The notes below the pieces were generated by a model. The model made no database searches, was not told the origin of the DNA, and worked only from the letters and a program-made list of their open reading frames with translations. From NCBI GenBank assembly GCA_019637795.1, contig JAHBUY010000003.1, positions 7,409 through 71,408 on the forward strand: 64,000 nucleotides of DNA. Reading direction: 5' to 3'. Below, piece by piece: positions 1-62,656 of this stretch. The DNA comes from a bacterium. GTDB lineage: Bacteria; Desulfobacterota; Binatia; HRBIN30; CADEER01. The position numbers and the translations under genes are program-made. Within the stretch, counting starts at the first letter, position 1. Each line of letters starts with the position of its first letter.

Positions 1-2427
1 GTCCGTCGCGGCGAGCAACGCCGGCGGAAGAACATCACCATCGCGGATGCCGCGGATGCGGAGGCGATCGTCCTCGGCGCGTTGATCGGCAGCCGATGCG
101 TGCCACGTCACTCGCACCTTCCCATGATGCGCGCAGACGAGATACGCGACGAGGTCGAATTCGTCTTCGCTCAGGTCGAGGATCTCCAATTCGAGCTTCG
201 AGGGCGACGCTTCGCCAGTCGCTGCCGGGGCTGGCGCCTGGCCGATCGCCTCGAGCAGCTCACGCCATCGGCCGAGTAAGGCCGGATGATCCTGACGGTG
301 GCGCCCGAGCACGGCGAACATGCCCAGCGTGCTCGCCAACTCGTGGCGAAAGCCCGCCCGCCGCTGCCCCCCCCCGCTGGGGTAGAGCTGGTGGCGCGGC
401 AGCCAGGCACCATTGGGGGCCTTCGCCAGATCGCGTCGCGCGGGACGTCCTGCGCCGACAATGGAGCCCTGGAAGGCTTCGTGTCGCTTGCCGAGATCGT
501 GCCATCGACCAGCGAGGTCCAGGAGGTGCTCCCGGCCGGGCAGCAGCGTTCGGCCGAACTCCGCCGCCAGGCGCCCAACCTGCTGCCCGTGCACGGCGAT
601 GGTCTGCCACGGATAGGCGCTCAGCGCCTCGTCGTCCTCGCTGGAATCCGCCAGCTCTTCGGGCGAGAGAGCCGGCGGCGCCACCGGCTCGACTGTTGCG
701 CGGCTGCGCGGTGACCATCCCATGGTCGCGGAATACCCGCCGACGTCGGCTGCCACGAGAACGGTCTGCCCTGGGTACAGGTCACGCCGCACCGCCGGGC
801 GCCAGATGCCATCCAGCCAGCTCCAGACCCACGCGCGCACACCGGGAAGGAGACGCGGCGCGCGCTGCTTGCCAGCCTCTTTGCCACACAACCAGTCCCG
901 CGCCCGCAGAAACGGCACGGCACAGAGCGCGGCGCGCGCGGGGCGCAGCGTCGGTTCGGGCGTCGCGCCAGCGGGGACCCGCTCCCAGAACACCTGGAGG
1001 TCGCGCTCCTCCCCGCTGCGAATGAAGCGGCTGATGTCGACATCGGCGCCAGAGAGATCTGGGGTGGTATCGAAGAGGTCGTCCACCTCATGCCGCAACA
1101 GCAGGTGCTTCGGCGCGTAAGGATACAGCCGGGGCAGCAGATCTCGATGCGCATCCTCGAAACGCTCGAGTGCAGCGGGTGACACGTCGGCCAGATGACG
1201 CAAGGCCTCGCGGGCGGAGTCGATCTCGCTCTTTGCGTAGGGCGCGGCCGTCCTTTCGTCAGCGGGTTGCGGGTCGATGATCACGACGTCGGCAGCCCCC
1301 CCCCATCGAGCCGCCCGGCCGAATCGCTGCACCAGGCTCGTCCATGGAGCGAGTGCCGTCACCAGGACCGTGGCGGAGATGTCGACGCCGGCCTCGATGA
1401 CCTGAGTGGCGACGATGATGCGGTCCGTTCCGCGCCCGCAGAAGGCCCGGTCGAGGAACTCACGCCGCCAGGCCTCGCGCTCGTGCGGGCGGAAGCGGCT
1501 GTGGATCAGCCGGATGTCCGTGCCCTGCAGCCGGCGGTCGCGTTGGATCGCCTCGAAGGTCTCGCACGCGTCGTCGACCCGGTTCAGCACCACGAGTGTC
1601 GGCCCGTCCTTGCCCTTGCCGCGCTCGAGATGCGCCGCGATCACCGTGTCGGCGACCGACTTCGCGCCATCGGCCTCGACGACGCGCACCGGCTTTTCGA
1701 CGTCCTCCCACAGGTGGCCGTGGCGAGCAGGTGCGGCGATGTTCGTCAGGGAGATGGTTTCGCTGAAGCCTCGCGTCTCGGGACTCGCTGCAAGCCATTC
1801 GCGCTGAAGCGTGGCGCTCATCCACCATGTGGCGCACGGGCGAAACGCCTTGCGGCCCTCCTCGCGGCGGAAGGCGTGGAGCTGTCCCGAGGTGGCGAGG
1901 CCGACGTCCATGAGCTGCACCTCGTCCATCACCCACAGCGCGTCGTGGTTGAGGAGCCCGAACTCCATCGGCCAGCGCGCCCGCGGACTCCCGTAACCGC
2001 GATTGAGGGCGCGCGAGAGCAACATGTCCTGCGTGCCGATCAGTACCGCGCAGTCTTCCGGGTGGAGATGCCACTCGCCCGCATCGGCACCGCCCATGAG
2101 AACGTACACGCCAACGCCGTGGTGCGGCGCAGCGCCCTCCCGGAGAAGGGCGAGCCGGCGGAGACTCGCGCGCACTTCGTCGGCGGTCTGCTCGACCAAC
2201 ACCCGCATCGGCAGGCACCACACGAGTCGGCGCGGCCACCCGTCATCGTCGCGTTCTACGCGGTGCCACAGCCAGGCCGACAACACCCCAGCAGTCTTGC
2301 CGAAGCCAGTCGGGATGCGGATCAGACGCTCCGATGACAGCGGCTCACCGGCCAACTCCTCCTGCCACGGGTAGGAGCCCGCCTCGATCCCGGTTACGCG
2401 TGCGAAATAGCGCCGAAAGTCACTCAC
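1..2427 (-). CDS. cas3: Cas3 helicase-nuclease with C-terminal HD domain (3' end runs off the left edge). Start is approximate: GTG near 2427 or TTG near 2492.
   Basis: My minus-strand translation gives Walker A IPTGFGKT (around 2290), a DEAH-like DEVQ motif, and helicase motif VI QRFGRAARWG (around 1290). An HD motif WHDLGKRHEAFQ sits near the 3' end (around 500). Helicase before HD is the type I-G/I-U arrangement. Confidence 0.85.
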   Translation of the reverse strand, partial: MSDFRRYFARVTGIEAGSYPWQEELAGEPLSSERLIRIPTGFGKTAGVLSAWLWHRVERDDDGWPRRLVWCLPMRVLVEQTADEVRASLRRLALLREGAAPHHGVGVYVLMGGADAGEWHLHPEDCAVLIGTQDMLLSRALNRGYGSPRARWPMEFGLLNHDALWVMDEVQLMDVGLATSGQLHAFRREEGRKAFRPCATWWMSATLQREWLAASPETRGFSETISLTNIAAPARHGHLWEDVEKPVRVVEADGAKSVADTVIAAHLERGKGKDGPTLVVLNRVDDACETFEAIQRDRRLQGTDIRLIHSRFRPHEREAWRREFLDRAFCGRGTDRIIVATQVIEAGVDISATVLVTALAPWTSLVQRFGRAARWGGAADVVIIDPQPADERTAAPYAKSEIDSAREALRHLADVSPAALERFEDAHRDLLPRLYPYAPKHLLLRHEVDDLFDTTPDLSGADVDISRFIRSGEERDLQVFWERVPAGATPEPTLRPARAALCAVPFLRARDWLCGKEAGKQRAPRLLPGVRAWVWSWLDGIWRPAVRRDLYPGQTVLVAADVGGYSATMGWSPRSRATVEPVAPPALSPEELADSSEDDEALSAYPWQTIAVHGQQVGRLAAEFGRTLLPGREHLLDLAGRWHDLGKRHEAFQGSIVGAGRPARRDLAKAPNGAWLPRHQLYPSGGGQRRAGFRHELASTLGMFAVLGRHRQDHPALLGRWRELLEAIGQAPAPAATGEASPSKLELEILDLSEDEFDLVAYLVCAHHGKVRVTWHASAADQRAEDDRLRIRGIRDGDVLPPALLAATD

Positions 2428-2758
2428 CGGACAGTATCCCAGACCTTTCGAGGTCCACCCACGCCAGGATCGCCGAACGGTGGGCTGGAGACCCAACCGC
2501 GCCGATCCTTCGCATTCACAGACCTCGGCTGGTTATCGACCTCATCCCGCTTCTGCAAGCTTCTTCGCGCCAGTCATGGTCCGGGCCCGACAGCGGCTGT
2601 CTGCGCGCCGCGAACCATTGAGCCTCGACGCCGGCGAGAGCTGCCCCACACAGCCCCGAGCGGATTCCACTGAGCGCATCTCGCGCTCGATGCCGCGCAG
2701 TATTCGCTCGCGGTGGTGGCGTCAGCGGCGTGGGGCGAATATTTGAGAGTCATCCACG

Positions 2759-2992
2759 ATGATGCCGAAGGAACACCAACGCGTCGTCCTGACCGCCCCT
2801 ATTCCCGCTGAGGGCCTGGAGCCCGGCGACGTCGGCACGGTGGTCCATGTCTACGGGGACGGCGCGGCCTGCGAGGTCGAGTTCGTGACGCTGGGCGGTG
2901 AGACCGCGGCGGTGGTGACGGTGGACCACTCAGAGTTCCGTCCGATCTCCCCCGGCGAGATCACCCACGCGCGCGAGCGCCGCGCCTCCTGA
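2759..2992 (+). CDS. DUF4926-family small protein (77 aa) wedged between cas3 and cas2
   Basis: ORF translation ...GDVGTVVHVYGDGAACEVEFVTLGGETAAVVTVDHSEFRPI matches the DUF4926 pattern from memory. Composition is normal, unlike the surrounding junk ORFs. Confidence 0.55.
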   Translation: MMPKEHQRVVLTAPIPAEGLEPGDVGTVVHVYGDGAACEVEFVTLGGETAAVVTVDHSEFRPISPGEITHARERRAS

Positions 2993-3180
2993 GCGGCAAC
3001 CAGGCCCACGCGCGCCGGCAGGTCTCCCAGCGGCCCTGCCCGAACGCCCAGGCGCGCCGGACGCCAGGCGCCACCACCGCCACGCCCGGTGACGCCCGGC
3101 GCGCGCCCCTCCTGGCTGGGCGCCCGGCGCGACCGGCGGGGATGGCGCTGGACGGGTTCTTGCTCCCCGCCGGTCCCGCC

Positions 3181-3483
3181 ATGCGCAACACGTTTCTCGT
3201 CTGCTACGACATCTGCGACGACAAACGCCTGCGCGCGGTCCACAGGACCATGCGCGATTTCGGCGATCACCTGCAGTACTCGATCTTCGAGTGCCAGTTC
3301 ACCGAGAGCGATCTGCTGCGCTGCCGGCACGCGCTGAGCGAGATCATCGACCACCGCGACGACCAGGTGCTGTTCGTCGACCTCGGCCCGTCGGCGGGGC
3401 GCGGCGAGCGGGTCATCACCGCCGTCGGCCGGGCCTACTCGCCGATCGACAGCCCCTGCCTGGTGATCGACGGACGGGAGTGA
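3181..3483 (+). CDS. cas2: CRISPR-associated endoribonuclease Cas2 (alternative start 3142)
   Basis: MRNTFLVCYDICDDKRLRAVHRTMRDFGDHLQYSIFECQF carries the Cas2 signature (VxYDI ... QYSVFEC). Its stop lies 5 nt before the cas4-cas1 start. Confidence 0.85.
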   Translation: MRNTFLVCYDICDDKRLRAVHRTMRDFGDHLQYSIFECQFTESDLLRCRHALSEIIDHRDDQVLFVDLGPSAGRGERVITAVGRAYSPIDSPCLVIDGRE

Positions 3484-3488
3484 CGCCC

Positions 3489-5321
3489 ATGGCCCCGGAT
3501 CAACCCGCGGCGGCCGCTGCCGATGCGCCGGACCACGCCACGCCGGCATCGCCCGCCTACGTGCCGGCGCGCATGCTCAACGAGGTCGTCTACTGCCCGC
3601 GCCTCTTCTTCTACGAGTGGGTCGAGGGCGTGTTCGTCCACAACGCCGACACCGTCGAGGGCGCCCTCCGCCACGAGAAGCTCGAGCGCAAGGAGGACCC
3701 GCTGCCCACAGCGGCCGAGGCGGAGACCGGCGAGTCGATCCGCGCCCGCTCGGTGGAGCTGGCCAGCGATCGGCTCGGCATCATCGCCCGCATCGACCTG
3801 GTCGAGGGCGAGGGCGGCACGCTCTCCCCCGTCGACTACAAGAAGGGCGCGCCGCGCCAGGGCGACGACGGCAGCCCAGAAGCGTGGCCCGCCGATCGCG
3901 TCCAGGTCGGCGCCCAGGCGCTCATCCTGCGCGACAACGGCTACGCCTGCGACGAGGCGGTCCTCTACTACAGCGCCACCCGGCAGCGGGTCCGCGTCGC
4001 GCTCGACGCCGCCCTGGTCGACGAGATCACCGCCGCCATCGCCACCGCCCGCGCCCTGGCGGCCGGCGGCCGCATCCCGCCACCGCTGGTCGACAGCCCC
4101 AAATGCCCGCGCTGTTCGCTGGTCACCATCTGCCTGCCGGACGAGACCCGCGCCGCGGCGACGCTGCCCGCCGAGCCGGACGACGCCGCGCAGCTCGCGC
4201 TCTTCGCCACCGACGAGCCGCCGCGCGCCGCCGCGGAGGCCGACGGCGACGGGCTCGGCGAGGTGCGCCGCCTGATGCCGGCCCGCGACGACCTGCGCCC
4301 GCTCTACCTCACCGGCCACGGCCTCACCGTCGGCAAGAGCGGCGAGGTGCTGCAGGTACGCGAGTACGGCCGCGCCAAGGGCGCGCCGTCGAAGCTGATC
4401 CAGGAGGTGCGCCTCAACGAGATCTCGCAGATCAACCTGTTCGGCAACGTGCAACTGACGCCCGCCGCCGTTCAAGGTCTGTGCGCCGCCGAGAAGCCGG
4501 TCGCGTACTTCTCGTTCGGCGGCTGGTTCTACGGCCTGACGCAGGGGCTCGGCCTGCGCAACGTGTTCCTGCGCCGCGAGCAGTTTCGCCGCGCCGACGA
4601 TCCGCGCTTCGCCCTGCGGGTGGCGCGCGACCTCGTCGCGAGCAAGATCCGCAACCAGCGCACGCTGCTGCAGCGCAACCACGTCGAGCCGCCGCCGGTC
4701 GCGCTGCTGCGCCTGAAGCGCCTGGCGCAGCAGGCGCAGGCGGCCACCGCGCTCGACGAGCTGCTCGGCATCGAGGGCACGGCGGCGCGCCTCTACTTCG
4801 AGCACTTCGCCGGCATGCTCAAGGTCGAGGACGGCGACGGCGGCGCGCCCGCCTTCGACTTCCGCACCCGCAACCGCCGCCCGCCGCGCGATCCGGTCAA
4901 CGCGCTGCTGTCGTTCGCCTACGCGCTGCTCAGCAAGGATCTGATGATCACCTGCCACGGCATCGGCTTCGACCCGTTCGTCGGCTTCTATCACCAGCCG
5001 CGATACGGCCGCCCCGCCCTCGCCCTCGACCTGATGGAGGGCTTCCGCCCGCTGGTCGCCGACTCCGCCGTGCTGACGGCGATCAACAGCCGCATGGTCG
5101 GCGACACCGACTTCATCCGCGCCGGCGACGCCGTCGCGCTCACCCCCGCCGGCCGCAAGGGCTTCATTCGCGCCTACGAGCAACGCATCGACACCCTGGT
5201 CACCCATCCGCTGTTCGGCTATCGCGTCACCTACCGCCGCGTGTTCGAGATCCAGGCCCGTCTCCTGGCCCGCTTCATCAGCGGCGAGATCCTCCGCTAT
5301 CCCGGATTCGAAACCCGATGA
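3489..5321 (+). CDS. cas4-cas1: Cas4-Cas1 fusion protein (610 aa)
   Basis: The N-terminal half has the Cas4 RecB-like nuclease fold with Cys at YCPRLFFYEW and a C-terminal CPRCSLVTIC cluster. The C-terminal half is Cas1 (LYLTGHGLTVGKSGEVLQV ... NALLSFAYALL ... DLMEGFRPLVAD). It is one uninterrupted ORF. Confidence 0.9.
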   Translation: MAPDQPAAAAADAPDHATPASPAYVPARMLNEVVYCPRLFFYEWVEGVFVHNADTVEGALRHEKLERKEDPLPTAAEAETGESIRARSVELASDRLGIIARIDLVEGEGGTLSPVDYKKGAPRQGDDGSPEAWPADRVQVGAQALILRDNGYACDEAVLYYSATRQRVRVALDAALVDEITAAIATARALAAGGRIPPPLVDSPKCPRCSLVTICLPDETRAAATLPAEPDDAAQLALFATDEPPRAAAEADGDGLGEVRRLMPARDDLRPLYLTGHGLTVGKSGEVLQVREYGRAKGAPSKLIQEVRLNEISQINLFGNVQLTPAAVQGLCAAEKPVAYFSFGGWFYGLTQGLGLRNVFLRREQFRRADDPRFALRVARDLVASKIRNQRTLLQRNHVEPPPVALLRLKRLAQQAQAATALDELLGIEGTAARLYFEHFAGMLKVEDGDGGAPAFDFRTRNRRPPRDPVNALLSFAYALLSKDLMITCHGIGFDPFVGFYHQPRYGRPALALDLMEGFRPLVADSAVLTAINSRMVGDTDFIRAGDAVALTPAGRKGFIRAYEQRIDTLVTHPLFGYRVTYRRVFEIQARLLARFISGEILRYPGFETR

Positions 5322-5537
5322 CCGACTCCCGCGAGCCCGCTCTCGCCAACCCGCCCGACCGCGCGAGCGCCTCGGTGACGGCGATTCCCCGGCCCCCGCT
5401 CGCGCCGAGAATCCGTTGCCCCCACCAACCCTTGCAGCACCGCGCGCCACGGACTACTGCACGTCCCCGCGCGTCGCCCCGAGCCGCTCGCAATCCGCAC
5501 CCGTGGTCTTTGACTTTCGACAACTTGCAGTGGAACT
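5322..5537 (+). promoter_or_regulatory. CRISPR leader (216 bp between cas4-cas1 stop and first repeat)
   Basis: Position only. The degenerate terminal repeat is at the far end of the array, so this end is the leader-proximal side. Confidence 0.5.
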
Positions 5538-7904
5538 CCTTCCGCGGCTGAACAGCCGCGGCCTCATTGAAGCGACGCCGGTCTGCGCCTGGTGGAGGAC
5601 AAGGTCCGCCCTTCCGCGGCTGAACAGCCGCGGCCTCATTGAAGCCTGCGCGGCCGCGAGATGTCGGTCCGCCTGATTCTCCCTTCCGCGGCTGAACAGC
5701 CGCGGCCTCATTGAAGCGTGATCGCGCCATCGACCCCGAGGATCCGCGCCAACGCCCCTTCCGCGGCTGAACAGCCGCGGCCTCATTGAAGCCTGCAGCC
5801 GTCCGTAGTCGAGGGCCTTCGCGTCGCCTTCCGCGGCTGAACAGCCGCGGCCTCATTGAAGCGCGGGCTTGCTCGCAATCCATGGTCCGCTGCGGCACCC
5901 TTCCGCGGCTGAACAGCCGCGGCCTCATTGAAGCGCGAAGAGCCGCCCCGGCGCCTCACTCCACAAGAACTCCTTCCGCGGCTGAACAGCCGCGGCCTCA
6001 TTGAAGCCCGATCTCGTGCGCTTCGGGCGGTATCGCGACACGCCGCCCTTCCGCGGCTGAACAGCCGCGGCCTCATTGAAGCACGCCCGGCGCGGGCGGC
6101 ACGGCCACGCCGAAGCCGCCTTCCGCGGCTGAACAGCCGCGGCCTCATTGAAGCACCGCCGCCTCGTCCGCCGCGCTCATCGCTGCACCTCCGCCTTCCG
6201 CGGCTGAACAGCCGCGGCCTCATTGAAGCGACACCTATCGCTTCGGCGTCACCAACGACACCTGCCTTCCGCGGCTGAACAGCCGCGGCCTCATTGAAGC
6301 ACCTGCTCGGGGCCCAGCTCGCCCAGAAGGCTCCCCACCTTCCGCGGCTGAACAGCCGCGGCCTCATTGAAGCTCGCGGCAACCGACGCGGATGGAGAGC
6401 ACGCCATCGCGCCTTCCGCGGCTGAACAGCCGCGGCCTCATTGAAGCCTCACCTTCGCCGCGCAGGGCATCTACGCGACGCCGACCTTCCGCGGCTGAAC
6501 AGCCGCGGCCTCATTGAAGCCACCCACCACAATCGGCGGTTCAATCCGCTAGAAAGGCCTTCCGCGGCTGAACAGCCGCGGCCTCATTGAAGCCGCCTGC
6601 ACCGCGACATGGGCGCGCGATGGATCGACCTTCCGCGGCTGAACAGCCGCGGCCTCATTGAAGCGAGCCAGCGTTGCGCGTTGGCGAAGCCGCGCAACGC
6701 CTTCCGCGGCTGAACAGCCGCGGCCTCATTGAAGCCTCCTCATAGATCCGCCGCGTCTCGGCCGGCAGCGTCGACCTTCCGCGGCTGAACAGCCGCGGCC
6801 TCATTGAAGCCGCGCACGCAAGCGCCGTCTGCCGCGTATCTCAATTATCCTTCCGCGGCTGAACAGCCGCGGCCTCATTGAAGCCTGCTCGGTGTCGTGA
6901 CGATAGCCGTCGATCGCACCCTTCCGCGGCTGAACAGCCGCGGCCTCATTGAAGCGCGCCGTCGAGGCTGGCGCCGACGAGGCTGGCGCGGACCCTTCCG
7001 CGGCTGAACAGCCGCGGCCTCATTGAAGCCTGGCAAGCTGACACGGACACTTACGAGATCGTCGACCCTTCCGCGGCTGAACAGCCGCGGCCTCATTGAA
7101 GCCAGCCCCCTCATTTCCGCTCCCTGAGTCACGACTCCCACCTTCCGCGGCTGAACAGCCGCGGCCTCATTGAAGCACGGTCACGCGCGGCCCATCCTTC
7201 TTGGCCGTGCCCGGCCTTCCGCGGCTGAACAGCCGCGGCCTCATTGAAGCCGGCCTACCCTGGCGGCCTCGATCTGCCCCACGGCTCCTTCCGCGGCTGA
7301 ACAGCCGCGGCCTCATTGAAGCGCGCGCTCGACCCACGGTACATCTTGGAGTTCACGGGGCCTTCCGCGGCTGAACAGCCGCGGCCTCATTGAAGCCAGA
7401 TTGTCGGTGAGGTGGTGTCGGGTCTCCGCACCCTTCCGCGGCTGAACAGCCGCGGCCTCATTGAAGCCAGCTCGGCGGCTTTCTGCTGCGCCGCGTTCTT
7501 GTCCTTCCGCGGCTGAACAGCCGCGGCCTCATTGAAGCAACAAGATAAACTTTACGTGCCAGTGGAAACTGAGGTACCTTCCGCGGCTGAACAGCCGCGG
7601 CCTCATTGAAGCAGCCTCAGGCGTTCCCACGTCGCGTCGCGCGAGCCACCCTTCCGCGGCTGAACAGCCGCGGCCTCATTGAAGCATCGCCGCCATCCCT
7701 CACCTCCATTCAAAAAGGGGCCGGCCTTCCGCGGCTGAACAGCCGCGGCCTCATTGAAGCGCTGCCACCGCTCTCACCACCGCTGACGAATGCGGCCTTC
7801 CGCGGCTGAACAGCCGCGGCCTCATTGAAGCCACTCGACGCTGGTGCAGGCAGACCTCGACCAGAAGCCCTTCCGCGGCTGAACAGCCGCGGCCTCAATT
7901 AGGT
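5538..7904 (+). CRISPR. CRISPR array: 33 repeats of 36 bp (CCTTCCGCGGCTGAACAGCCGCGGCCTCATTGAAGC) and 32 spacers of 34-39 bp. The last repeat is degenerate (…CCTCAATTAGGT).
   Basis: Repeat starts counted directly at 5538, 5610, 5682, 5757, 5827, 5899, 5972, 6047, 6119, 6194, 6265, 6338, 6412, 6485, 6558, 6629, 6700, 6775, 6849, 6920, 6994, 7067, 7141, 7215, 7287, 7361, 7432, 7503, 7577, 7650, 7725, 7796, 7869. The repeat has an internal 7-bp palindrome GCGGCTG/CAGCCGC and an ATTGAAGC 3' tail. Confidence 0.97.
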
Positions 7905-8121: not shown

Positions 8122-9000
8122 TCAGATGGCGTCGCTGACGCCGCGCACGAACAGGGGCTCGATGGCGTAGCGCGCCGCGTCGGCGCGCAGCGCGTCGTCG
8201 GCGGGGGCGGGAGCCGGTTGGAAGGCGGCGACGAGGATCGGCCGCAGCAGCGTCGCGTCGCTCGAGCTGTTGAGGAAGAGGCCGGGGCGCGCCAGCACGA
8301 AGCTGACGGCGCGGGCGATCGCGTCGGCATCGCGCAGCGGCTCGTACCAACTGAAGCGATGGCTGGTGTCGTCCTCGCGCCAGCGGCGCCGCGCCACCGA
8401 CTTGATGGTCTGCACCGCGACGCCGCGCTCGCCGCACAGGGCGAGCAGGGCCTCGAGGTCGGCGGCGTAGACGGGATCCTGCAGCAGGCTGAAGTTGTAG
8501 GGCACCAGCACGCTGTCGAAGGGGAAGCGCTCGAGACTGCGGCGGTGCATCGCCGGCGCCCAGGTGCCGTGGCCGGTGACGCCGAGGAAGCGCACCGTCC
8601 CCCGTTCGCGCGCTTCCACCAGGGCCTCGAGCGCGCCGCCGGGGCCCATCGCCGCGCGCCAGTCGTCCTCGTCGACCAGGTTGTGGAGCTGGACGAGGTC
8701 GAGCTGCTCGACCCGCAGCCGCTGCCGCGACCGCTCGATGCTGGCCCGTGCCCCCGCGGCGGTGCGCTCGCCGGTCTTGGTGGCGAGGAAGAAGCGGTCG
8801 CGATGGCGCGCCATCCACGGCCCGATGCGCAGCTCGGCGTCGCCGTAGGAGGCGGCGGTGTCGATGTGGTTGACGCCGAACTCGAGCAGGAGCTCGAGCA
8901 CCTGGTCCGCCCGGTCCTGGCGCATGGCGGCGAGCGCCGCGGCGCCGAACAGCACCCGCGAGCTGTCGTGCCCCGTGCGCCCGAATGGGATGCGCTGCAT
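8122..9000 (-). CDS. aldo/keto reductase family oxidoreductase
   Basis: MQRIPFGRTGHDSSRVLFGAAALAA ... EFGVNHIDTAASYGDAE ... LATKTGERT shows AKR motifs. The ATG position was checked at 9000. Confidence 0.85.
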   Translation of the reverse strand: MQRIPFGRTGHDSSRVLFGAAALAAMRQDRADQVLELLLEFGVNHIDTAASYGDAELRIGPWMARHRDRFFLATKTGERTAAGARASIERSRQRLRVEQLDLVQLHNLVDEDDWRAAMGPGGALEALVEARERGTVRFLGVTGHGTWAPAMHRRSLERFPFDSVLVPYNFSLLQDPVYAADLEALLALCGERGVAVQTIKSVARRRWREDDTSHRFSWYEPLRDADAIARAVSFVLARPGLFLNSSSDATLLRPILVAAFQPAPAPADDALRADAARYAIEPLFVRGVSDAI

Positions 9001-56731: not shown

Positions 56732-57534
56732 CCGAACGACCTCCCGTGCGGCAGGCCGAGGTTGAGGCTGATCAGCGACACCACCAGCAGCGCGAAGCCG
56801 ACCAGGGTGAGCGTCGCCGCCCGCCGCCCGCGCCAGCCGATCGAGCGCGCCTGCAGCAGCACCGCGTAGAGCAGCCAGGCGAGCACCGACAGCACCTGCA
56901 CCGGCTCCCACGACCAGAAGGTGCCCCAGGCCGCTTTCGCCAGCAGCGAGCCGGTGACGATGCCGATGGTGAAGAGGGCGAAGCCCCAGGCGACGCAGCG
57001 GTAGTTGAGGTTGTCGAGCGTCTCCAGCGAGGGCAGGCGGAAGCGGCCGCGCCGCTTCGCCTTCAACTGCCGCTCCTGCAGCAGGTAGACGAGGCTGACG
57101 CAGGAGGCGAGGGCGAAGATGGCGTAGCCGAGGAACGCCGGCGCGACGTGCGCCGGCAGCCAGGCGGTGTCGAGCTCGGCCGGCAGGCGGTCGGCGCCCG
57201 AGAACACGATGTAGGACGAGAGCGTCAGCAGGAACGCGAGCGGCGTCACCAGGGCGCCGAGCACCGCCAGCGGCGCCCGCCACTGCAGGCCGAGGTAGAG
57301 GCCGACGATCAGCCAGGCGAGCAGCGAGAGCTGGTCGTGGAAGGTGCCGAGCGCGCCGAGGCCGACGCTGTGCAGGCGCAGCACGACGGCGACGGTGTCG
57401 AGCGCGAAGGCGGCGGTGAGCGCCACCAGCGCGATGCGATGGGCGAGGACGCGGCCGCTGGTGATGTGGGCGACGAACGCCGCCGCGGAGGTCAGGTAGA
57501 GGCCCAGGCTGAGGGCGAAGAGGAGCAGCTCCAT
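56728..57534 (-). CDS. cytochrome c assembly protein (CcsA/HemX-like membrane protein)
   Basis: 268-aa polytopic ORF with W-rich segments (WGTFWSWEP), lying between sirC and hemA. Confidence 0.7.
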
Positions 57535-57546
57535 GAGCGGTCCGGC

Positions 57547-58209
57547 TCAGAGATGGGCGCCGAGGCTGGCGAGCGACACCTGCGCCCCGGCGTGGGCGGC
57601 GAGCAGGCGATCGACCGCCGCCGCATCGGGGCGGCGCAGGCATTCGAGGAGGTCCGAGGCCACCAGCGCGCGCAGGATGCGTTGCCGCTCGGCGCTGGGT
57701 AAGTCCCGCGCCTGCAGGTGGGCGCGCAGGCGGGCGAGGACGTCGAGCGCGCGCTCGTACTCGGGACCGAGCAGGCGGTCGATCTCGTCGCGGACCCGCC
57801 CGGCCAGGGCGGGGCTGCCGCCGCCCGTGGAGACCGCCACCGCGAGCTCGCCCCGACGCAGCACCGCCGGAACGATGAAGCGGCACCATTGCGGCCGGTC
57901 CACCACGTTCAGCAGCACGCCCGCCGCCTCGGCTGCCCGCGCCAGCTCGGCGTGCAGCGCCTCGTCGTCGGTGGCCGCGTAGGCGAGCCGGGCGCCGTCC
58001 AGGTCGCCGTCCTGGTACGTCCGGTGGAAGTGGCCGATCTCACCCCGCGCCAGCCGCTCGGCCAGACCGGGGGTCAGGGAGGGCGCCACCACCGTCACCC
58101 GCGCCCCCGCGGCCAGCAGGGACTCGACCTTGCGCTCCGCCACCTCCCCGCCGCCGATGACCACGCAACGCTCCCCCGCCATCTGCAGGAAGACCGGATA
58201 GTAGGCCAT
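57547..58209 (-). CDS. sirC: precorrin-2 dehydrogenase / sirohydrochlorin ferrochelatase (siroheme synthase N-domain, SirC/CysG-N)
   Basis: MAYYPVFLQMAGERCVVIGGGEVAERKVESLLAAGARVTVVAP is the Rossmann motif. The start was checked at 58209. Confidence 0.85.
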   Translation of the reverse strand: MAYYPVFLQMAGERCVVIGGGEVAERKVESLLAAGARVTVVAPSLTPGLAERLARGEIGHFHRTYQDGDLDGARLAYAATDDEALHAELARAAEAAGVLLNVVDRPQWCRFIVPAVLRRGELAVAVSTGGGSPALAGRVRDEIDRLLGPEYERALDVLARLRAHLQARDLPSAERQRILRALVASDLLECLRRPDAAAVDRLLAAHAGAQVSLASLGAHL

Positions 58210-58508
58210 TGCCGGACCGTAGCACAGGAGGCCGACGCGGCGCACCGAAGCCGCCGCCCGGGACCGCGGGCGTCTCGCCCGCACCGCAGCGCGCAACGTG
58301 CGAGCGCCGCCGCCCTTCCGCTCGTCCCCGAGCCGCTGTGCTGCGTATGCGTCGCACGCACGAGCAACCGATGATCACCAAGCGCGATCTGCGCATTGCG
58401 TGCCGGCTCAGCAGCAGCGCGGCGGGCGCCGTCGCCATCGCCAAGCCGGGTCGCCGCGCGAGACGCACCCACGCCGCAGGCGCCCGCAGCGGGACTCGCG
58501 CGCACGCG

Positions 58509-58775
58509 CTATGCCGCGCTGCCTGCCCTGGATCGCACCGATCGCCTCGGGGTGGCCCGTCTCGCCAGCGCGGCCACCTGGACGAGCGCCCGCAGCCCCT
58601 CGTTCACGGCCCGCGCGTTGCCGAAGTAGGGCCACAGCTCGGGGTCGACCACCACCGCATGCGCCTGGCGCGGGAAACGGGCGGCATAGCGTCCGCGGCT
58701 CGCCCTGCTCCAATCGTAGCGTTCGAGTGAATCCTCCGCCGGTCGCTTGCGGCGGCTAGCCGATGCCTTCTTCAT
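58509..58775 (-). CDS. brnA: BrnA-type antitoxin (DUF4415-like)
   Basis: ...YDWSRASRGRYAARF ... NARAVNEGLRALV follows the BrnA pattern. It overlaps the brnT 3' end by 20 nt. Confidence 0.6.
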   Translation of the reverse strand: MKKASASRRKRPAEDSLERYDWSRASRGRYAARFPRQAHAVVVDPELWPYFGNARAVNEGLRALVQVAALARRATPRRSVRSRAGSAA

Positions 58776-59043
58776 ATCTTCTCCTCTGCGCCGCGGACGC
58801 CTTCCGGGCGCTGATCAGGCGGATTCGCTCACCTCTCTCGGCGTGGACCACGAACAAGACGCGTTGTCGGGACGAGCAGCCGATGATCACGAAGCGGCTG
58901 GGAACGAAGCGATCCGGCGCATCGATCGCATTGGGGTCGGAGAACACGGTCAGCGCCTCCGGAAAGGACACCCCGTGCTTGACCAGATTCGCGCGCGCCT
59001 TGGCGTCGTCCCATTCGAAATCGCCATAGACCGCCCGCCCCAT
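58756..59043 (-). CDS. brnT: BrnT-type toxin (DUF497)
   Basis: FEWDDAKARANLVKHGVSFPEALTVFSDPNAI ... RFVIIG ... HAERGERIRLISARKA is the DUF497/BrnT signature. Confidence 0.75.
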   Translation of the reverse strand: MGRAVYGDFEWDDAKARANLVKHGVSFPEALTVFSDPNAIDAPDRFVPSRFVIIGCSSRQRVLFVVHAERGERIRLISARKASAAQRRRYEEGIG

Positions 59044-59152
59044 GCGCCCACACGCTATACCAGCGGCCCGCCGAGGCGAGAAACCGACATCGCGGCGGCC
59101 GAGCCGCGGCGGCGAGCCCATGCAGCCGACGGCGCCGCACGCCGGCAACCGA

Positions 59153-59515
59153 TCAGCGGCCGCCGATCACGACCGGCGCCCGGCCGCTGCCGAGCCGCAG
59201 CACGGTCCAGCCACCGGCCAGCGCCCGTTCGACCATGCGCGTCTCGCGCGCCAGGGAAAAACCGGCGGTCAGCGCGTAGCCGAAGCGCGGGATGCGCGCC
59301 GGGCGCAGGTCGAGGGCCCGTTGCGCCAGCAGGCGCTGCGGCCCGAGCAGCTCGACGTAGCGGCCCCGGCCGGAGCTGTGCTGGCGCAGCTCGCGCTGCA
59401 GCTCCAGCAGCTTGGACTCGGCGTCGATCTCGAAGGCCAGGGCGTTGAGCGTGTTGCGCTTGCTGCGCCGGCAGGCGCGGTAGTGCCGCCACAGGTCGGC
59501 GAAGGAGACGTCCAT
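59153..59515 (-). pseudogene. truncated reverse transcriptase (DGR/retron-type RT), N-terminal about 55 aa only, then unrelated sequence
   Basis: MDVSFADLWRHYRACRRSKRNTLNALAFEIDAESKLLELQRELRQHSSGRGRY matches the conserved N-terminus of DGR RTs (FxNLxxAxxxAxxGKR ... F ... LQxEL ... Y). No downstream RT motifs are found in any frame. Confidence 0.5.
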
Positions 59516-59570
59516 GGCAAGTGTGGCGGGCGCCGCCGGGGCGGCGCCCGCCACGGGGCCGATCACGATC

Positions 59571-59707
59571 CGCTACGCACGGCGCCAACGTAGTTGTTGT
59601 TGGTGCGGTTGTTCGCGTTCACGTTCCCATCGTTGAAGTTCGCGATCCACGCGTTGTCCGGATTGGGCGCGTAGGTAGTAGCAGACCAGTAGTTGTTGGA
59701 CTGCGTC
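59571..59707 (-). repeat. DGR template-repeat (TR)-like copy of the 3' end of the DUF1566 gene; extremely AAC-rich
   Basis: The coding-sense translation is TQSNNYWSATTYAPNPDNAWIANFNDGNVNANNRTNNNYVGAVRSGS*, with 12 AAC codons in 46. It is homologous to 60184..60324. It lies between the avd stub and the RT stub. Confidence 0.65.
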
Positions 59708-59723
59708 GCCCTCGCCGCTTGTG

Positions 59724-59893
59724 CCCGCCGCCGATGACCACGCAACGCTCCCCCGCCATCTGCAGGAAGACCGGGTAGTAGGCCATTGCCGGACCGTAGC
59801 ACAGGAGCCCGATGCGGCGCACCGAAGCCGCCGCCCGGGACCGCGGGCGTCTCGCCCGCAGCGCAGCGCGCAACGTGCGAGCGCCGCCGCCCT
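59724..59893 (-). repeat. 170-bp near-identical (about 97%) direct duplicate of the sirC promoter and first 21 codons (58147..58316), inserted where avd should be
   Basis: Base-by-base comparison gives about 5 mismatches in 170. It includes the sirC ATG copy at 59779..59781. Confidence 0.9.
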
Positions 59894-60057
59894 CGTTCCG
59901 GTTGCCTACCGAGGAACCTCCCGTCGCTTCGAGCTGGGTCGTCCCGACACGATCCGCGTGGAGGGCGCCGCTGGTCGGAGACTCCGACGGCGCTGCGCTG
60001 CGGGCGAGACGCCCGCGGTCCCGGATGGGTGCAGGGAGGTGGCGCAGGCCGACGCGG

Positions 60058-60120
60058 CTCGAAGTACAGGCAGAGATCGTAGGCGGCCTTGTAGATGGGA
60101 AGGTGCTCGCTCTGCGCCAT
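60058..60120 (-). pseudogene. avd: N-terminal stub (about 21 aa) of an Avd-like four-helix-bundle protein (PF05635 / 23S rRNA IVS family)
   Basis: MAQSEHLPIYKAAYDLCLYFE resembles the conserved N-terminus of four-helix-bundle/Avd proteins. The frame then runs into unrelated duplicated sequence. Confidence 0.45.
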
Positions 60121-60180
60121 CGGCCCGGTGTGGGGGGCTCCCGCCCCACACCCCCCCGTATCAAATGGTCCAATGATCGA

Positions 60181-61359
60181 TCACGAGCCGCTACGCACAG
60201 CGCGAACGTAGTAGCTGCTGGTGCGGCCGCCCAAGTCCACGTACCCATGGCCGAAGGACGGCAGCCACACGTAGAGCGGATCGGGCGCGGAGGTAGTAGC
60301 AGACCAATGGTGGCTGGACCGCGTGCACGAGCACGCCGCGTTCGTGATGTCGGCGCACGCAACGCCGCAGCTCCCGCCGTCGAAGGCCACGTCGACCACC
60401 GGCGGCGTGGTGTCGGCATAGTCGAGAATGCCCTGCAGCTCCTGCAGCCTCGGCACGCGCCAGTCGTTGTGGCCGGCGAAGTTGGCGCTGTTGAGATCGG
60501 CGGCCCAGGTCCAGATAGTGGTCGACTGGTTGCAGGTGCCGTCGCCGCCGGTGCACTCGTCGCAGCCGGTGGTGCCGCCCTCGGCGTTGGCGGCGCACAG
60601 CGTCGCCGCCGCCGCCGCCGGCTGGCAGAACTTGCTGGTGTTGACCGTGCAGGTGCCCGACCACGGGTAGTAGTTGTCGGCGTCGTGCGGGTTGGCGAAG
60701 TCCGGGTTGTAGTCGAGCTTGACCTTCTTCTCCCACTGCAGGCCGCTCTGGTTGTCGGTGACCGTCCCGTCGGCGTTGTCGGCGAAGCGGGCGTTCCAAC
60801 AGCCGCTGGTGTCGAAGACGCAGCCGCTGCCGCAGCGCAACACGCCCCCGACGTAGCCCTCGGTGGCGCAGGTGGCGCCGTTGAGGGTCCCCAGATCGCA
60901 CTGCTCGCCGCCGTCGATGGCGCCGTTGCCGCACAGCTCGGCGGCCACCAGGTCGGTCTCGCAGGTGTCGAGGTCGGTGGTGCAGGTGGTCAGCTCGTCG
61001 TTGCACTGCTGCACCGGCGGCGGCAGGCCGCCGCCGGCCAGCGCCGTCGCCAGCGCGTCGGTGTACTCGCCGATGAACGCCTGGATCGCCGCCTGGTCGC
61101 CGTTCGACGGGCACATGCCGCCGCCCGCCGCCTCGGTCTTGCCCCACTTGCCGGCGAATCCGGCGTCGCACTTCGAGAAGTCCGGCGCCCCGCCGCTCTG
61201 CGCCGCCTTGGCCTCCGCCTTCAGGCGGCAGAAGTCGTACTTGCCGGCCAGCTTCAGCTTGCCGGCCTGGCACTTCTCGGCCGGCGTCACCGCGCCAGCG
61301 CCGCCGGCGAGCGCCAGGCTCGCCAGGACAAACCCGTACCGCAGCAGATGTTCCATCGC
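60181..61359 (-). CDS. secreted/lipoprotein with Myxococcus-type cysteine-rich repeats and C-terminal DUF1566 (Lcl-like, C-type-lectin-fold) domain; putative DGR target protein
   Basis: Signal peptide MEHLLRYGFVLASLALAGGAGA. Repeats CGNGAIDGGEQCDLGTLNGATCATEGY ... CGSGCVFDTSGCW. DUF1566 motifs TVTDNQSGLQWEKK, NYYPWSG and DWRVPRLQELQGILDYA, ending ...HHWSATTSAPDPLYVWLPSFGHGYVDLGGRTSSYYVRAVRSGS. Confidence 0.75.
   Translation of the reverse strand, partial: AMEHLLRYGFVLASLALAGGAGAVTPAEKCQAGKLKLAGKYDFCRLKAEAKAAQSGGAPDFSKCDAGFAGKWGKTEAAGGGMCPSNGDQAAIQAFIGEYTDALATALAGGGLPPPVQQCNDELTTCTTDLDTCETDLVAAELCGNGAIDGGEQCDLGTLNGATCATEGYVGGVLRCGSGCVFDTSGCWNARFADNADGTVTDNQSGLQWEKKVKLDYNPDFANPHDADNYYPWSGTCTVNTSKFCQPAAAAATLCAANAEGGTTGCDECTGGDGTCNQSTTIWTWAADLNSANFAGHNDWRVPRLQELQGILDYADTTPPVVDVAFDGGSCGVACADITNAACSCTRSSHHWSATTSAPDPLYVWLPSFGHGYVDLGGRTSSYYVRAVRSGS
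60184..60324 (-). other. variable-repeat (VR)-like 3' segment of the DUF1566 gene (partner of the TR-like copy)
   Basis: Aligned with 59571..59707, there are about 33 differences in 137 nt. About 22 fall where the TR copy has A (coding sense), and every AAC codon of the TR is changed. A GC hairpin (60127..60152) lies 29-54 nt downstream of the stop. Confidence 0.6.
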
Positions 61360-61787
61360 GTTCCCCCTCCAGGCAGTGTCAGTGATCGCCGACCCGATGC
61401 CTCTCATCGGGCGCTCATCTTTCTCTCATCCAGCGTCGCGGGGAAGGCAACCTAGGGAAAACCCTGATCACCGCGAGAGCCGGCCGGGGATGCTCGAGCG
61501 TCGGTCGCGAGCCCGGGCGCTGCCGGGCGGTCGATCACGACGGTCACCTGGAGGACCGCGCCGGGGACGAGACGGTCGGCCAGGGCGCCGCGCCGCGTGG
61601 CCGCGCCGCACTCCGGGCGCGGTCGAACGGCAACCGCCGGCGGCGCCCGGCGGACCTGGAGACCCGCGCTGCGGCCCCGCCCCGCCCGCTGTCCCCCGCC
61701 GGCGGGCGAAAGGTTTGCCAACCCCCACCTGGCCTGGTACTGCTGCTCTTTAATTTTTGCCCCACCCCCTCATCAAAAGGAGAGCCT

Positions 61788-62656
61788 TCGTGAAAGCACA
61801 ACTGCAGCGGATCGGGTTCCTCGCCGTGGCCGTGGCCGGCATGGCCTACGCGACGGCGGCCCTGGCGGACGACGCCACCAACCAGAAGATCATCGACTAC
61901 TACCGGCGCAAGTCGAACCTGCCGCCGGAAGTGGCCGTGACGGTGACCAACGTCACCGACGCCAAGATCCCCGGCGCCAAGCAGGCGACGTTGAACCTGT
62001 CGCGCGGCGGCCAGACGCAGACCGAGGAGATCCTCATGTCCGCCGACGGCCGCTACGTGGTCTTCGCCGAGGTCGAGGACATCACCTCCGATCCGTTCAA
62101 GGCGATCGCGTCGAAGATCAAGACCGACAACTCGCCGGTCCGCGGCCCGAAGGACGCGAAGGTCACGATCGTCGAGTTCTCCGACTTCCAGTGCCCGTAC
62201 TGCGCCCGCGCCCATCAGACGATGAGCGAGCAGGTGATGAAGGAGTACGACGGCAAGGTGAAGCTGGTGTACAAGAACTTCCCGCTCGGCTTCCACAAGT
62301 GGGCCGAGCCGGCCGCCATCGCCGGCGCCTGCGCCTACCAGCAGGATCCCGCCGCCTTCTGGACGTTCTACGACTACATGTTCAACAACCAGCAGCAGAT
62401 CACGCCCGAGAACGTGAAGGAGAAGTCGCAGGAGGCGCTGAAGGGCACGAAGGTCGACATGGCGAAGTGGAACGACTGCTTCGACAACAAGAAGACCCTC
62501 GAGAAGGTCAAGGCGGACATGGCCGAGGGCGGCGCCGTGGGCGTCACCGGCACGCCGGCCTTCATCATCAACGGCCGCAAGATCAGCGGCGCCCAGCCGT
62601 TCCAGAACTTCAAGGCCGTCATCGACGACGAGCTGGCGCGCTCCGGCAAGAGCTGA
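61788..62656 (+). CDS. DsbA-family thiol:disulfide oxidoreductase (GTG start after AAGGAG RBS)
   Basis: CPYC active site (FSDFQCPYCARAH), a signal/anchor sequence, and a thioredoxin-fold C-terminus. Confidence 0.85.

Follow-up and report, generated by a model that had tools for sequence, protein, structure and literature searches.

The question raised by this locus is whether a minus-strand gene cluster in the window (the whole stretch of DNA analyzed here, 64,000 nucleotides) is a diversity-generating retroelement (DGR), and whether it is still able to diversify its target gene. In a DGR, a complex of RT and Avd reverse-transcribes the RNA of the TR with misincorporation opposite adenines, and the resulting cDNA takes the place of the VR, which forms the 3′ end of a target gene; the IMH end and a flanking hairpin direct this exchange. 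The DNA belongs to an uncultured bacterium of high GC content that is most closely related to MAGs of Candidatus Binatia. All of the DGR parts were found on the minus strand in the order target, avd stub, TR and RT remnant. This agrees with the preliminary description of the DNA, which had proposed four parts in canonical order; the coordinates proposed for each of them were correct to within a few bases.

The target gene (60181..61356, minus strand; NCBI MBX3025283.1) is an intact ORF of 391 aa; its product has a signal peptide, an N-terminal part rich in Cys and, at the C-terminus, a DUF1566/Lcl_C domain. Pfam Lcl_C (PF07603) matched residues 197-388, including the VR, with E=7e-22 and 78.3 bits against a cut-off of 34.9. 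As judged from its sequence, the product is a member of the DUF1566/Lcl_C family, from which a C-type-lectin fold is predicted. It shared 66% and 58% identity with the targets of intact DGRs. Myxobacterial Cys-rich repeats had also been proposed for this protein, and they were weakly supported: residues ca. 130-190 show local similarity to Myxococcota proteins, but TIGR02232 gave 15.6 bits over one partial repeat (E=0.011), below its cut-off of 20.8. Neither a second DUF1566 copy nor an Asn-rich or AAC-rich DUF1566 paralogue, which would have spoken for a simple paralogue fragment, was found within the 64-kb window. Most of the Binatia DUF1566 homologues on genome contigs have no adjacent RT.

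The VR (60178..60324, minus strand, 147 nt) contains the last 47 codons of the target and its stop codon, as expected from the earlier assignment of the VR to the 3′ end of a DUF1566 gene. Its counterpart, the TR (59560..59706, minus strand), is non-coding and carries 12 in-frame AAC codons, whereas the density elsewhere in the window reaches at most 7 per 48 codons. The AAC count had been given correctly in the preliminary description; the length had been given as 137 nt and was measured as 147 nt. The two repeats were aligned without gaps over 147 nt and showed 33 mismatches, located at 22 of the 40 TR adenines and at 11 of the 107 other bases (Fisher p=5e-8). The excess of differences at TR adenines, suggested earlier as a point to check, was thus significant, and this bias and the AAC-rich TR are features looked for in a DGR remnant. 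On the other hand, the differences are not confined to TR adenines as in a functional DGR: the estimate of about 11 non-adenine differences proved to be exact, compared with 1 and 2 in the intact relatives L046 and L050. The last 21 nt of the VR (60198..60178) form its IMH-like 3′ end, in which a single base distinguishes VR from TR (C versus A), and L046 has the same single IMH/IMH* difference. A TR-like copy observed in L053 was found to be a tandem DUF1566 paralogue and not a TR.

The intact DGRs used for comparison, L046-L049 and L050, have the same order of target, bAvd (PF22296), TR and RT (PF00078), and are approximately 80% identical to the window locus at the nucleotide level. Three nucleotide blocks of the window (61312-60057, 59731-59363 and 59365-59184) are collinear with L046 at 75-82% identity, so homology to an intact DGR extends over target, avd, TR and RT; homology around the TR begins at 59731, 25 nt upstream of the TR itself. 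Between these blocks, L046 has two segments without a counterpart in the window, 3429-3923 with avd and the spacer and 4345-5504 with the RT core. In addition, a sister strain (L056, from run SRR12908347) with 90% nucleotide identity, the same genomic context and a 95% identical upstream flank carries a complete avd, and its contig stops 13 nt beyond that gene.

The RT remnant (59153..59515, minus strand, ATG at 59515) is an ORF of 120 aa deposited as MBX3025282.1, "hypothetical protein". Its residues 1 to ca. 50 (59515..59363) correspond to the RT N-terminus, and residues ca. 51-120 (59365..59153) to the MutS_I-like C-terminal extension of the RT. In tblastn against the L046 RT, the matches covered residues 1-54 (74% identity, E=7e-19) and residues 439-511 (62%, E=3e-18). 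An in-frame internal deletion of approximately 1.16 kb, whose ends meet at a short GGC microhomology, has therefore removed the equivalent of L046 RT residues ca. 52-438, including all of RVT_1 (residues 68-268) and hence the whole catalytic domain that a functional DGR requires. The earlier claim of a truncated RT was right as to the loss of the core, but the lesion is internal and has left the C-terminus in place, so it is not a simple truncation; likewise, the match to the RT N-terminus was upheld, with about 50 residues instead of 55. The remnant ORF had no Pfam match; the stubs are either not covered by the RVT_1 model or of insufficient length for curated HMMs. When a custom DGR-RT profile built from 120 sequences was applied to the six-frame translation of the window, the RT stub was the sole match (E=1.7e-7; next best, 0.55), and no further RT was found within the 64 kb. 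The HMM check proposed earlier was thus negative with curated models (Pfam for the RT remnant, PHROGs and NCBIfam for the avd stub), and significant with the custom profile and by comparison with orthologues. Downstream of the RT remnant and outside the DGR, there is a BrnT toxin gene (59043..58756, minus strand; Pfam BrnT_toxin, E=4e-25) followed by a presumed BrnA antitoxin gene (58775..58509, minus strand), the role of the latter being assigned by position.

The avd gene was reported to be interrupted after 21 codons, and this was confirmed exactly. The stub (60058..60120, minus strand) is identical to the L056 Avd at 21 of 21 residues and to the L046 and L050 bAvd (PF22296) at 19 of 21 (E=3e-9); with NCBIfam and PHROGs the 21-aa peptide gave no match, and a PDB search returned nothing meaningful. 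Nucleotide homology to L046, L050 and L056 ends at 60057. From there, avd codons 22-134, i.e. 113 of the 134 codons of a gene that functional DGRs retain in lineages that use Avd, and the avd-TR spacer are replaced by 334 nt, consisting of a 164-nt filler and a 170-nt copy of part of a neighboring gene. The filler (59894..60057, minus strand) has no homology to the intact relatives; within it, the 35 nt at 59990-60024 repeat 59835-59869 perfectly in inverted orientation. A search for its source within the window yielded only 9- to 14-mer matches; its 12-nt match to the segment D1 is not significant, since such matches are common by chance in a window of 73% GC. The 170-nt copy, D1′ (59724..59893, minus strand), lies directly upstream of the TR and is 98% identical, with 4 mismatches in 170, to D1 (58147..58316, minus strand), which comprises the 5′ UTR and the first 62 nt of a sirohaem-synthase-like gene (CDS 58209..57547) located approximately 1.5 kb downstream of D1′. 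D1 is the native copy because Pfam NAD_binding_7 matches from residue 6 of that gene. The junction between D1′ and the region upstream of the TR falls in the 8-nt microhomology GCGGCGGG. An origin of D1′ as RT-made cDNA was rejected on the basis that the mismatches between D1 and D1′ (G>C, G>A, C>G and T>C) are not at adenines, and tandem duplication was rejected on the basis that D1 and D1′ share no similarity in their upstream flanks. The structure suggests a rearrangement by replication template switching or microhomology-mediated repair.

The GC-rich hairpin proposed after the target gene was located at 60127..60152 (minus strand) by folding and by alignment with L056, L046 and L050. Its 5′ arm lacks two G residues and its stem is therefore bulged, whereas the relatives have perfect stems of 11-12 bp; the remnant thus retains an IMH-like VR end and a downstream hairpin, with a 2-nt deletion in one arm. 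A second GC hairpin with a 14-bp stem (59523..59554, minus strand; fold) separates the TR from the start codon of the RT gene. Its folding energy is −23.9 kcal/mol (z=−3.8), none of 200 shuffled sequences folded as well, and L046 and L050 have a hairpin of different sequence at the equivalent position. An Rfam scan of 57000-62000 detected no RNA family, and a promoter/terminator scan of the minus strand of this region, a weak test at 73% GC, revealed no promoter-like site.

The non-adenine differences were polarized using the L056 VR and the TRs of L046 and L050; eight were assigned to the VR side and three to the TR side. Seven of the eight VR-side changes are nonsynonymous, which could be due to selection or to an episode of unusual mutagenesis instead of plain drift. 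The non-adenine divergence of the VR was 7.5%; for comparison, the branch rate at third positions since divergence from L056 was 5.2%.

The loss of the RT catalytic domain and of avd, together with the 11 non-adenine mismatches, supports the earlier view of an inactivated and decaying element, and we are highly confident that the locus is a chromosomal DGR in this state. What counts against decay is the continued integrity of the TR, of the IMH/IMH* difference and of the hairpin next to the TR. The ancestral operon, target-avd-TR-RT, would have diversified the VR of its DUF1566 target as DGRs do. In the present lineage, ca. 1.16 kb of the RT gene with all of its catalytic motifs has been deleted, fusing approximately 50 N-terminal to approximately 70 C-terminal codons, and avd codons 22-134 and the spacer have been exchanged for the filler and the copied 5′ region of the sirohaem-synthase-like gene. 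Since these two deletions took the RT core and avd, the VR of the target is frozen. Eight VR and three TR non-adenine substitutions would have been gained after retrohoming stopped, and the VR hairpin would have lost its two bases; we infer this timing of the decay. The target is presumably now a secreted binding protein of fixed specificity.

The intact TR side is also what would be expected if the locus were a TR-VR cassette that is no longer autonomous and relies for its diversification on RT and Avd supplied in trans by another DGR of this genome, and the copied 5′ region of the sirohaem-synthase-like gene might then serve as a promoter of the TR RNA. The TR is AAC-rich, the IMH/IMH* difference and the hairpin downstream of the TR are kept, a copied 5′ UTR and start codon stand directly upstream of the TR, and RT-less loci diversified in trans have been reported in Thiohalocapsa (bioRxiv 10.1101/2023.09.22.558884). 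However, any homing would reset the 11 non-adenine TR/VR differences, of which intact relatives have one or two, and the VR hairpin is damaged. The window contains no RT, the search for a replacement having covered 64 kb of a contig that measures 944 kb or more, and the promoter scan, weak as it is at this GC content, was negative for the minus strand. We therefore regard diversification in trans as very unlikely.

It is very unlikely, for three versions taken jointly, that the remnant is not inert. First, the TR, its hairpin and the initial 150 nt of the RT gene, placed behind the copied 5′ region of a housekeeping gene, could yield a TR RNA used in trans by the RT and Avd of another DGR. Second, the 120-aa ORF, which joins the N-terminal helix of the RT in frame to the MutS_I-like C-terminal domain, could encode a small protein that has been retained. 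Third, the patchwork filler may derive from RT template switching onto the mRNA of the neighboring gene.

The deletions could also be artefacts of MAG assembly, namely chimeric joins at repeats in an element that is really intact. Assemblies are often broken or confused by DGR repeats and by mixtures of strains, all three of the contigs L001, L055 and L056 terminate at repeats, and the avd/filler junction at 60057 and the filler are covered by the MAG assembly alone. In contrast, the Logan contig L055, obtained in a separate assembly (run SRR12908356), is 100% identical over 1467 nt and crosses two of the junctions, that of D1′ with the TR region and that of the RT deletion. Moreover, the junction microhomologies of 3-8 nt are far shorter than assembler k-mers, and the D1 copies differ at four positions, so that an artefact is highly improbable. 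The last possibility, that the TR is an Asn-rich fragment of a DUF1566 paralogue, the stubs are chance matches and there was never a DGR, finds some favor in the tandem DUF1566 paralogues without a DGR in L053 and in the silence of curated HMMs on the stubs, but has next to no probability in view of the adenine-specific mismatches and of the match to the DGR-RT profile (E=1.7e-7), and is refuted by the stub matches to intact relatives, the collinear homology of 75-82% to intact DGRs at the target, avd start, TR, RT start and RT end, and the intact avd of L056.

The decaying DGR is a clean and fully mapped natural case of the death of a chromosomal DGR, in which the target gene outlives the element and its frozen VR then evolves by ordinary substitution. 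Annotation pipelines label the RT remnant a 120-aa hypothetical protein; comparison with intact orthologues recognizes such stubs, whereas curated HMMs cannot. No paper in the library searched deals with both DGRs and Binatia; on this basis the Binatia-like host lineage is new for DGR reports, and DGRs with DUF1566 targets are extended to it. On the other hand, incomplete DGR loci have already been described, and loss of a DGR is an ordinary outcome.

Among known systems, DUF1566-type targets are classified as CLec2 ("category d") and the avd-TR-RT order as architecture B1, exemplified by the Legionella DGR (Wu et al. 2018, PMC5758913). The locus shares with these DGRs the gene order, the C-terminal VR in a DUF1566 target, the AAC-rich TR, the adenine-specific differences, the IMH-like end with a single TR/VR difference and the GC hairpin after the VR; it differs in the loss of the RT catalytic domain and of 113 of the 134 avd codons, and in the 11 non-adenine differences. 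The RTs of the intact relatives are extended at the C-terminus by a part with weak similarity to MutS_I, a feature noted for a few RTs in the same study. The DGR of Bordetella phage BPP-1 (bRT-Avd; PDB 8ub7) is very distant in sequence, the RT stub being collinear with bRT residues 17-67 at an E value of about 1. It has the avd-TR-RT order and the logic of IMH and hairpin in common with the locus, but is phage-borne and functional, and its target is Mtd instead of a DUF1566 protein.

The closest parallel in kind is provided by the incomplete or disrupted chromosomal DGR loci of Thiohalocapsa PB-PSB1 (Dore et al., bioRxiv 10.1101/2023.09.22.558884), which also lack a complete RT or TR and coexist with strain variants having intact components. 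There, too, the match at non-adenine positions serves as a gauge of whether a VR can be written, a gauge by which the present locus fails. The damage in Thiohalocapsa was caused by transposons and MITE-like arrays, and several of its loci are still diversified in trans, whereas the present locus carries two microhomology-flanked deletions, one of them filled by a templated copy of the 5′ region of a neighboring gene.

A DUF1566 target ORF of 391 aa (61356..60181, minus strand; NCBI record MBX3025283.1) has a signal-peptide-like N-terminus and matched Pfam Lcl_C/DUF1566 at residues 197-388 (E=7e-22). The GC content of the window was 73%, and the closest relatives of the host in the genome collection were Candidatus Binatia MAGs. 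The last 147 nt of this gene form a variable repeat (VR; 60324..60178, minus strand), which showed an ungapped identity of 78% to a template repeat (TR; 59706..59560, minus strand). The preliminary description had reported a noncoding copy of the 3' end of the gene carrying 12 AAC codons; the copy and its 12 in-frame AAC codons were recovered, although the repeat measured 147 nt and not the 137 nt given there. Mismatches between TR and VR numbered 33, with 22 at the 40 adenines of TR and 11 at the 107 non-adenines (Fisher p=5e-8). The suspected excess at TR adenines was thus demonstrated, and the estimate of about 11 non-adenine differences was accurate. The 21-nt 3' ends of the two repeats are common except for one base (C in VR and A in TR).

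The closest homologues of the target (66% and 58% identity) were found in complete diversity-generating retroelements (DGRs) on contigs L046-L049 and L050. Their gene order, as in the window, is target, bAvd (134 aa, PF22296), TR, and RT (516 and 535 aa, PF00078). The TR/VR pairs of L046 and L050, which served as a positive control for the appearance of an active pair, had 24-25 mismatches at adenines and 1 or 2 elsewhere within the repeat. Three nucleotide blocks were collinear between the window and L046: 61312-60057 with 2070-3428 (80-82%; target, intergenic region, and avd codons 1-21), 59731-59363 with 3924-4344 (80%; 25 nt 5' of TR, TR, spacer, and RT codons 1-51), and 59365-59184 with 5505-5687 (75.5%; RT C-terminus). 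The canonical order of the DGR parts on the minus strand was confirmed. Target homologues on contigs L051 and L053 (63% and 57% identity) have no adjacent DGR, and L053 carries an apparently frameshifted tandem DUF1566 paralogue in its place; therefore, this target family occurs with and without a DGR. The complete DGR of Desulfobotulus alkaliphilus (L018:1293-8315) has two DUF1566 targets (1353 and 181 aa) on either side of avd-TR-RT and three related repeats (5221-5386, 6008-6141, and 8185-8349).

HMM searches, which had been proposed as a check, found the Lcl_C/DUF1566 domain, whereas curated models missed both stubs: the 120-aa RT ORF had no Pfam match, and the 21-aa avd stub had no PHROGs or NCBIfam match, because either their length is insufficient or they fall outside the part of the RT covered by RVT_1. 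A custom profile was built from 120 DGR RTs related to the Desulfobotulus RT and searched against the six frames of the window with filters off. The RT stub was the sole match (E=1.7e-7, profile positions 25-72; next best E=0.55). It also aligned collinearly but weakly with residues 17-67 of BPP-1 bRT. The RT N-terminus, previously claimed for the first 55 residues, was 74% identical to the L046 RT across 54 residues (E=7e-19). The 21-codon avd stub, likewise confirmed, was identical to L046 Avd at 19 of 21 residues (E=3e-9).

The RT remnant ORF (59515..59153, minus strand; NCBI MBX3025282.1, hypothetical protein) retains both ends of the RT. Its remaining part matched residues 439-511 of the L046 RT (62% identity, E=3e-18); therefore, RT sequence has been lost as described, not by 3' truncation but by an internal deletion of ~1.16 kb, equivalent to residues ~52-438 and including the whole RVT_1 region (residues 68-268 in L046). 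The deletion junction lies within a short GGC/CGGGGC microhomology. Branch-specific amino acid changes were few (4 in the window and 5 in L046 in the N-part; 11 and 6 in the C-part). The retained C-terminal piece corresponds to the MutS_I-like extension of this RT subgroup (sub-threshold PF01624 matches, E=0.016 and 0.0019), a feature known from a few DGR RTs (Wu et al., PMC5758913). Such an extension of ~100 aa, weakly similar to MutS domain I, was present in the RTs of L046 (4191-5741) and L050 (8488-10095), and PF01624 matches were precomputed for five RTs of the L018-related set (P0032, P0034, P0037, P0072, and P0088). Since Wu et al. 2018 (PMC5758913) mention only three such RTs, the fusion appears to be commoner than their survey indicates.

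The interruption of avd was also verified: the stretch from codon 22 through the avd-TR spacer, which corresponds to 495 nt of L046, was exchanged for 334 nt. The right-hand end (170 nt, 59893-59724) duplicates 58316-58147 at 98% identity; the source segment comprises the 5' UTR and initial 62 nt of a sirohaem-synthase-like gene 1.5 kb downstream. The Pfam NAD_binding_7 match to this gene begins at its residue 6, which identifies the downstream copy as native. The inserted copy joins the TR-upstream sequence at a shared octamer, GCGGCGGG. Within the left 164 nt, 35 nt repeat a part of the duplicated segment perfectly in inverted orientation; for the rest, no source was detectable. We infer that the lesions would have arisen by replication template switching or microhomology-mediated repair, because microhomology junctions, a nearby templated copy, and a fold-back piece are expected products of these processes. 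The 4 differences between the 170-nt copies lie off adenines and thus give no pointer to RT involvement. The rearrangement created two chimeric minus-strand ORFs, neither present in the protein collection: 59563-60120 (185 aa; Lcl_C E=1e-8) opens at the avd start and crosses the left segment and the 170-nt copy to enter TR in the DUF1566 frame, and 59619-59789 reads from the copied sirohaem-synthase start codon out of frame into TR. An assembly artefact is an unlikely source of the lesions, since the junction homologies are very short and a Logan contig from a separate assembly of run SRR12908356 (L055), 100% identical to window 59753-58287, independently carries the junction of the 170-nt copy with TR and the RT-deletion junction.

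A contig of a sister strain (L056; Logan, run SRR12908347) was 90% identical to window 61907-60057, with 95% identity in the upstream flank, and the homology stopped exactly at 60057. Its avd is complete (PF22296), and the first 21 residues are the same as the window stub. Therefore, the common ancestor already had the DGR at this chromosomal site, and the loss of avd took place in the window lineage. A 1-nt gap of the L056 VR relative to TR (L056:1565-1735) shifts the end of the target ORF, which is 400 aa long and has a different C-terminus. Such a gap could reflect either a genuine frameshift or a consensus artefact arising from population diversity at VR. Against the window TR, the L056 VR had 23 differences at adenines and only 3 at non-adenines, and these 3 are changes of the window TR because the window VR matches L056 there. 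The remaining 8 non-adenine differences (8/107, 7.5%), 7 of which are nonsynonymous, are private to the window VR. In the target scaffold, the window-branch rate since the L056 split was 5.2% for third codon positions and 3.7% for all positions, and the two 170-nt copies differed at 4/170 (2.4%). These figures, small as they are, suggest that homing stopped at about the time of the strain split; the avd replacement may be younger.

The GC hairpin reported after the DUF1566 gene was located 3' of VR (60152..60127, minus strand); its 5' arm lacks two G relative to the perfect 11-12-bp stems in L056, L046, and L050. Judged from the 64 kb of the window, diversification of VR in trans by another DGR of the same genome is improbable: a match at non-adenines is the published criterion (bioRxiv 10.1101/2023.09.22.558884), and both the 11 non-adenine mismatches and the damaged hairpin speak against it. 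A DUF1566 paralogue fragment as the origin of TR is ruled out by the collinear homology to intact DGRs; within the 64-kb window, neither a further DUF1566 copy nor a second AAC-rich site (at most 7 AAC per 48 codons elsewhere) was found. The loss of the RT core and avd, the non-adenine mismatches, and the hairpin damage support the view of an inactivated, decaying element. The locus fails as a functional DGR and is a DGR member by descent.

A second GC hairpin, a strong one, lies between TR and the RT start codon (59554..59523, minus strand; 14 bp, z=-3.8), as in L046 (~4100-4185) and L050 (~8445-8470). Its position is conserved, and its sequence and length vary; possible roles are that of a structural element in the DGR RNA and that of a terminator/attenuator. 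Toxin-antitoxin modules flank the cassette in unrelated genomic contexts: BrnT and a presumed BrnA downstream in the window (58509-59043), and a PIN gene upstream and a PIN/PhdYeFM pair downstream in L046-L049 (L046 1326-1721 and 6204-6811). This may hint at a TA-rich island in which the cassette travels or which stabilises it. In the interval from brnA to the sirohaem-synthase-like gene, 14 residues (SRLVIIGCSCVRRI; 58346-58387, minus strand) resemble BrnT residues 49-62 (64% identity, E=0.11; 36-nt DNA repeat, 81%), a weak hint of another brnT, now decayed, of which this stretch would be a remnant.

No paper linking DGRs with Binatia was found among the literature searched, and the host lineage is therefore new for DGR reports; novelty is otherwise confined to the reconstruction of the lesions at base level. 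DGR decay at this locus is an ordinary biological outcome, and there are published examples of loci whose RT or TR is incomplete or missing, alongside intact variants in the same population (bioRxiv 10.1101/2023.09.22.558884). DUF1566-type targets make up ~14% of curated DGRs (PMC5758913), and avd-TR-RT is the common architecture; the window locus works, or worked, like the DGRs of this type.
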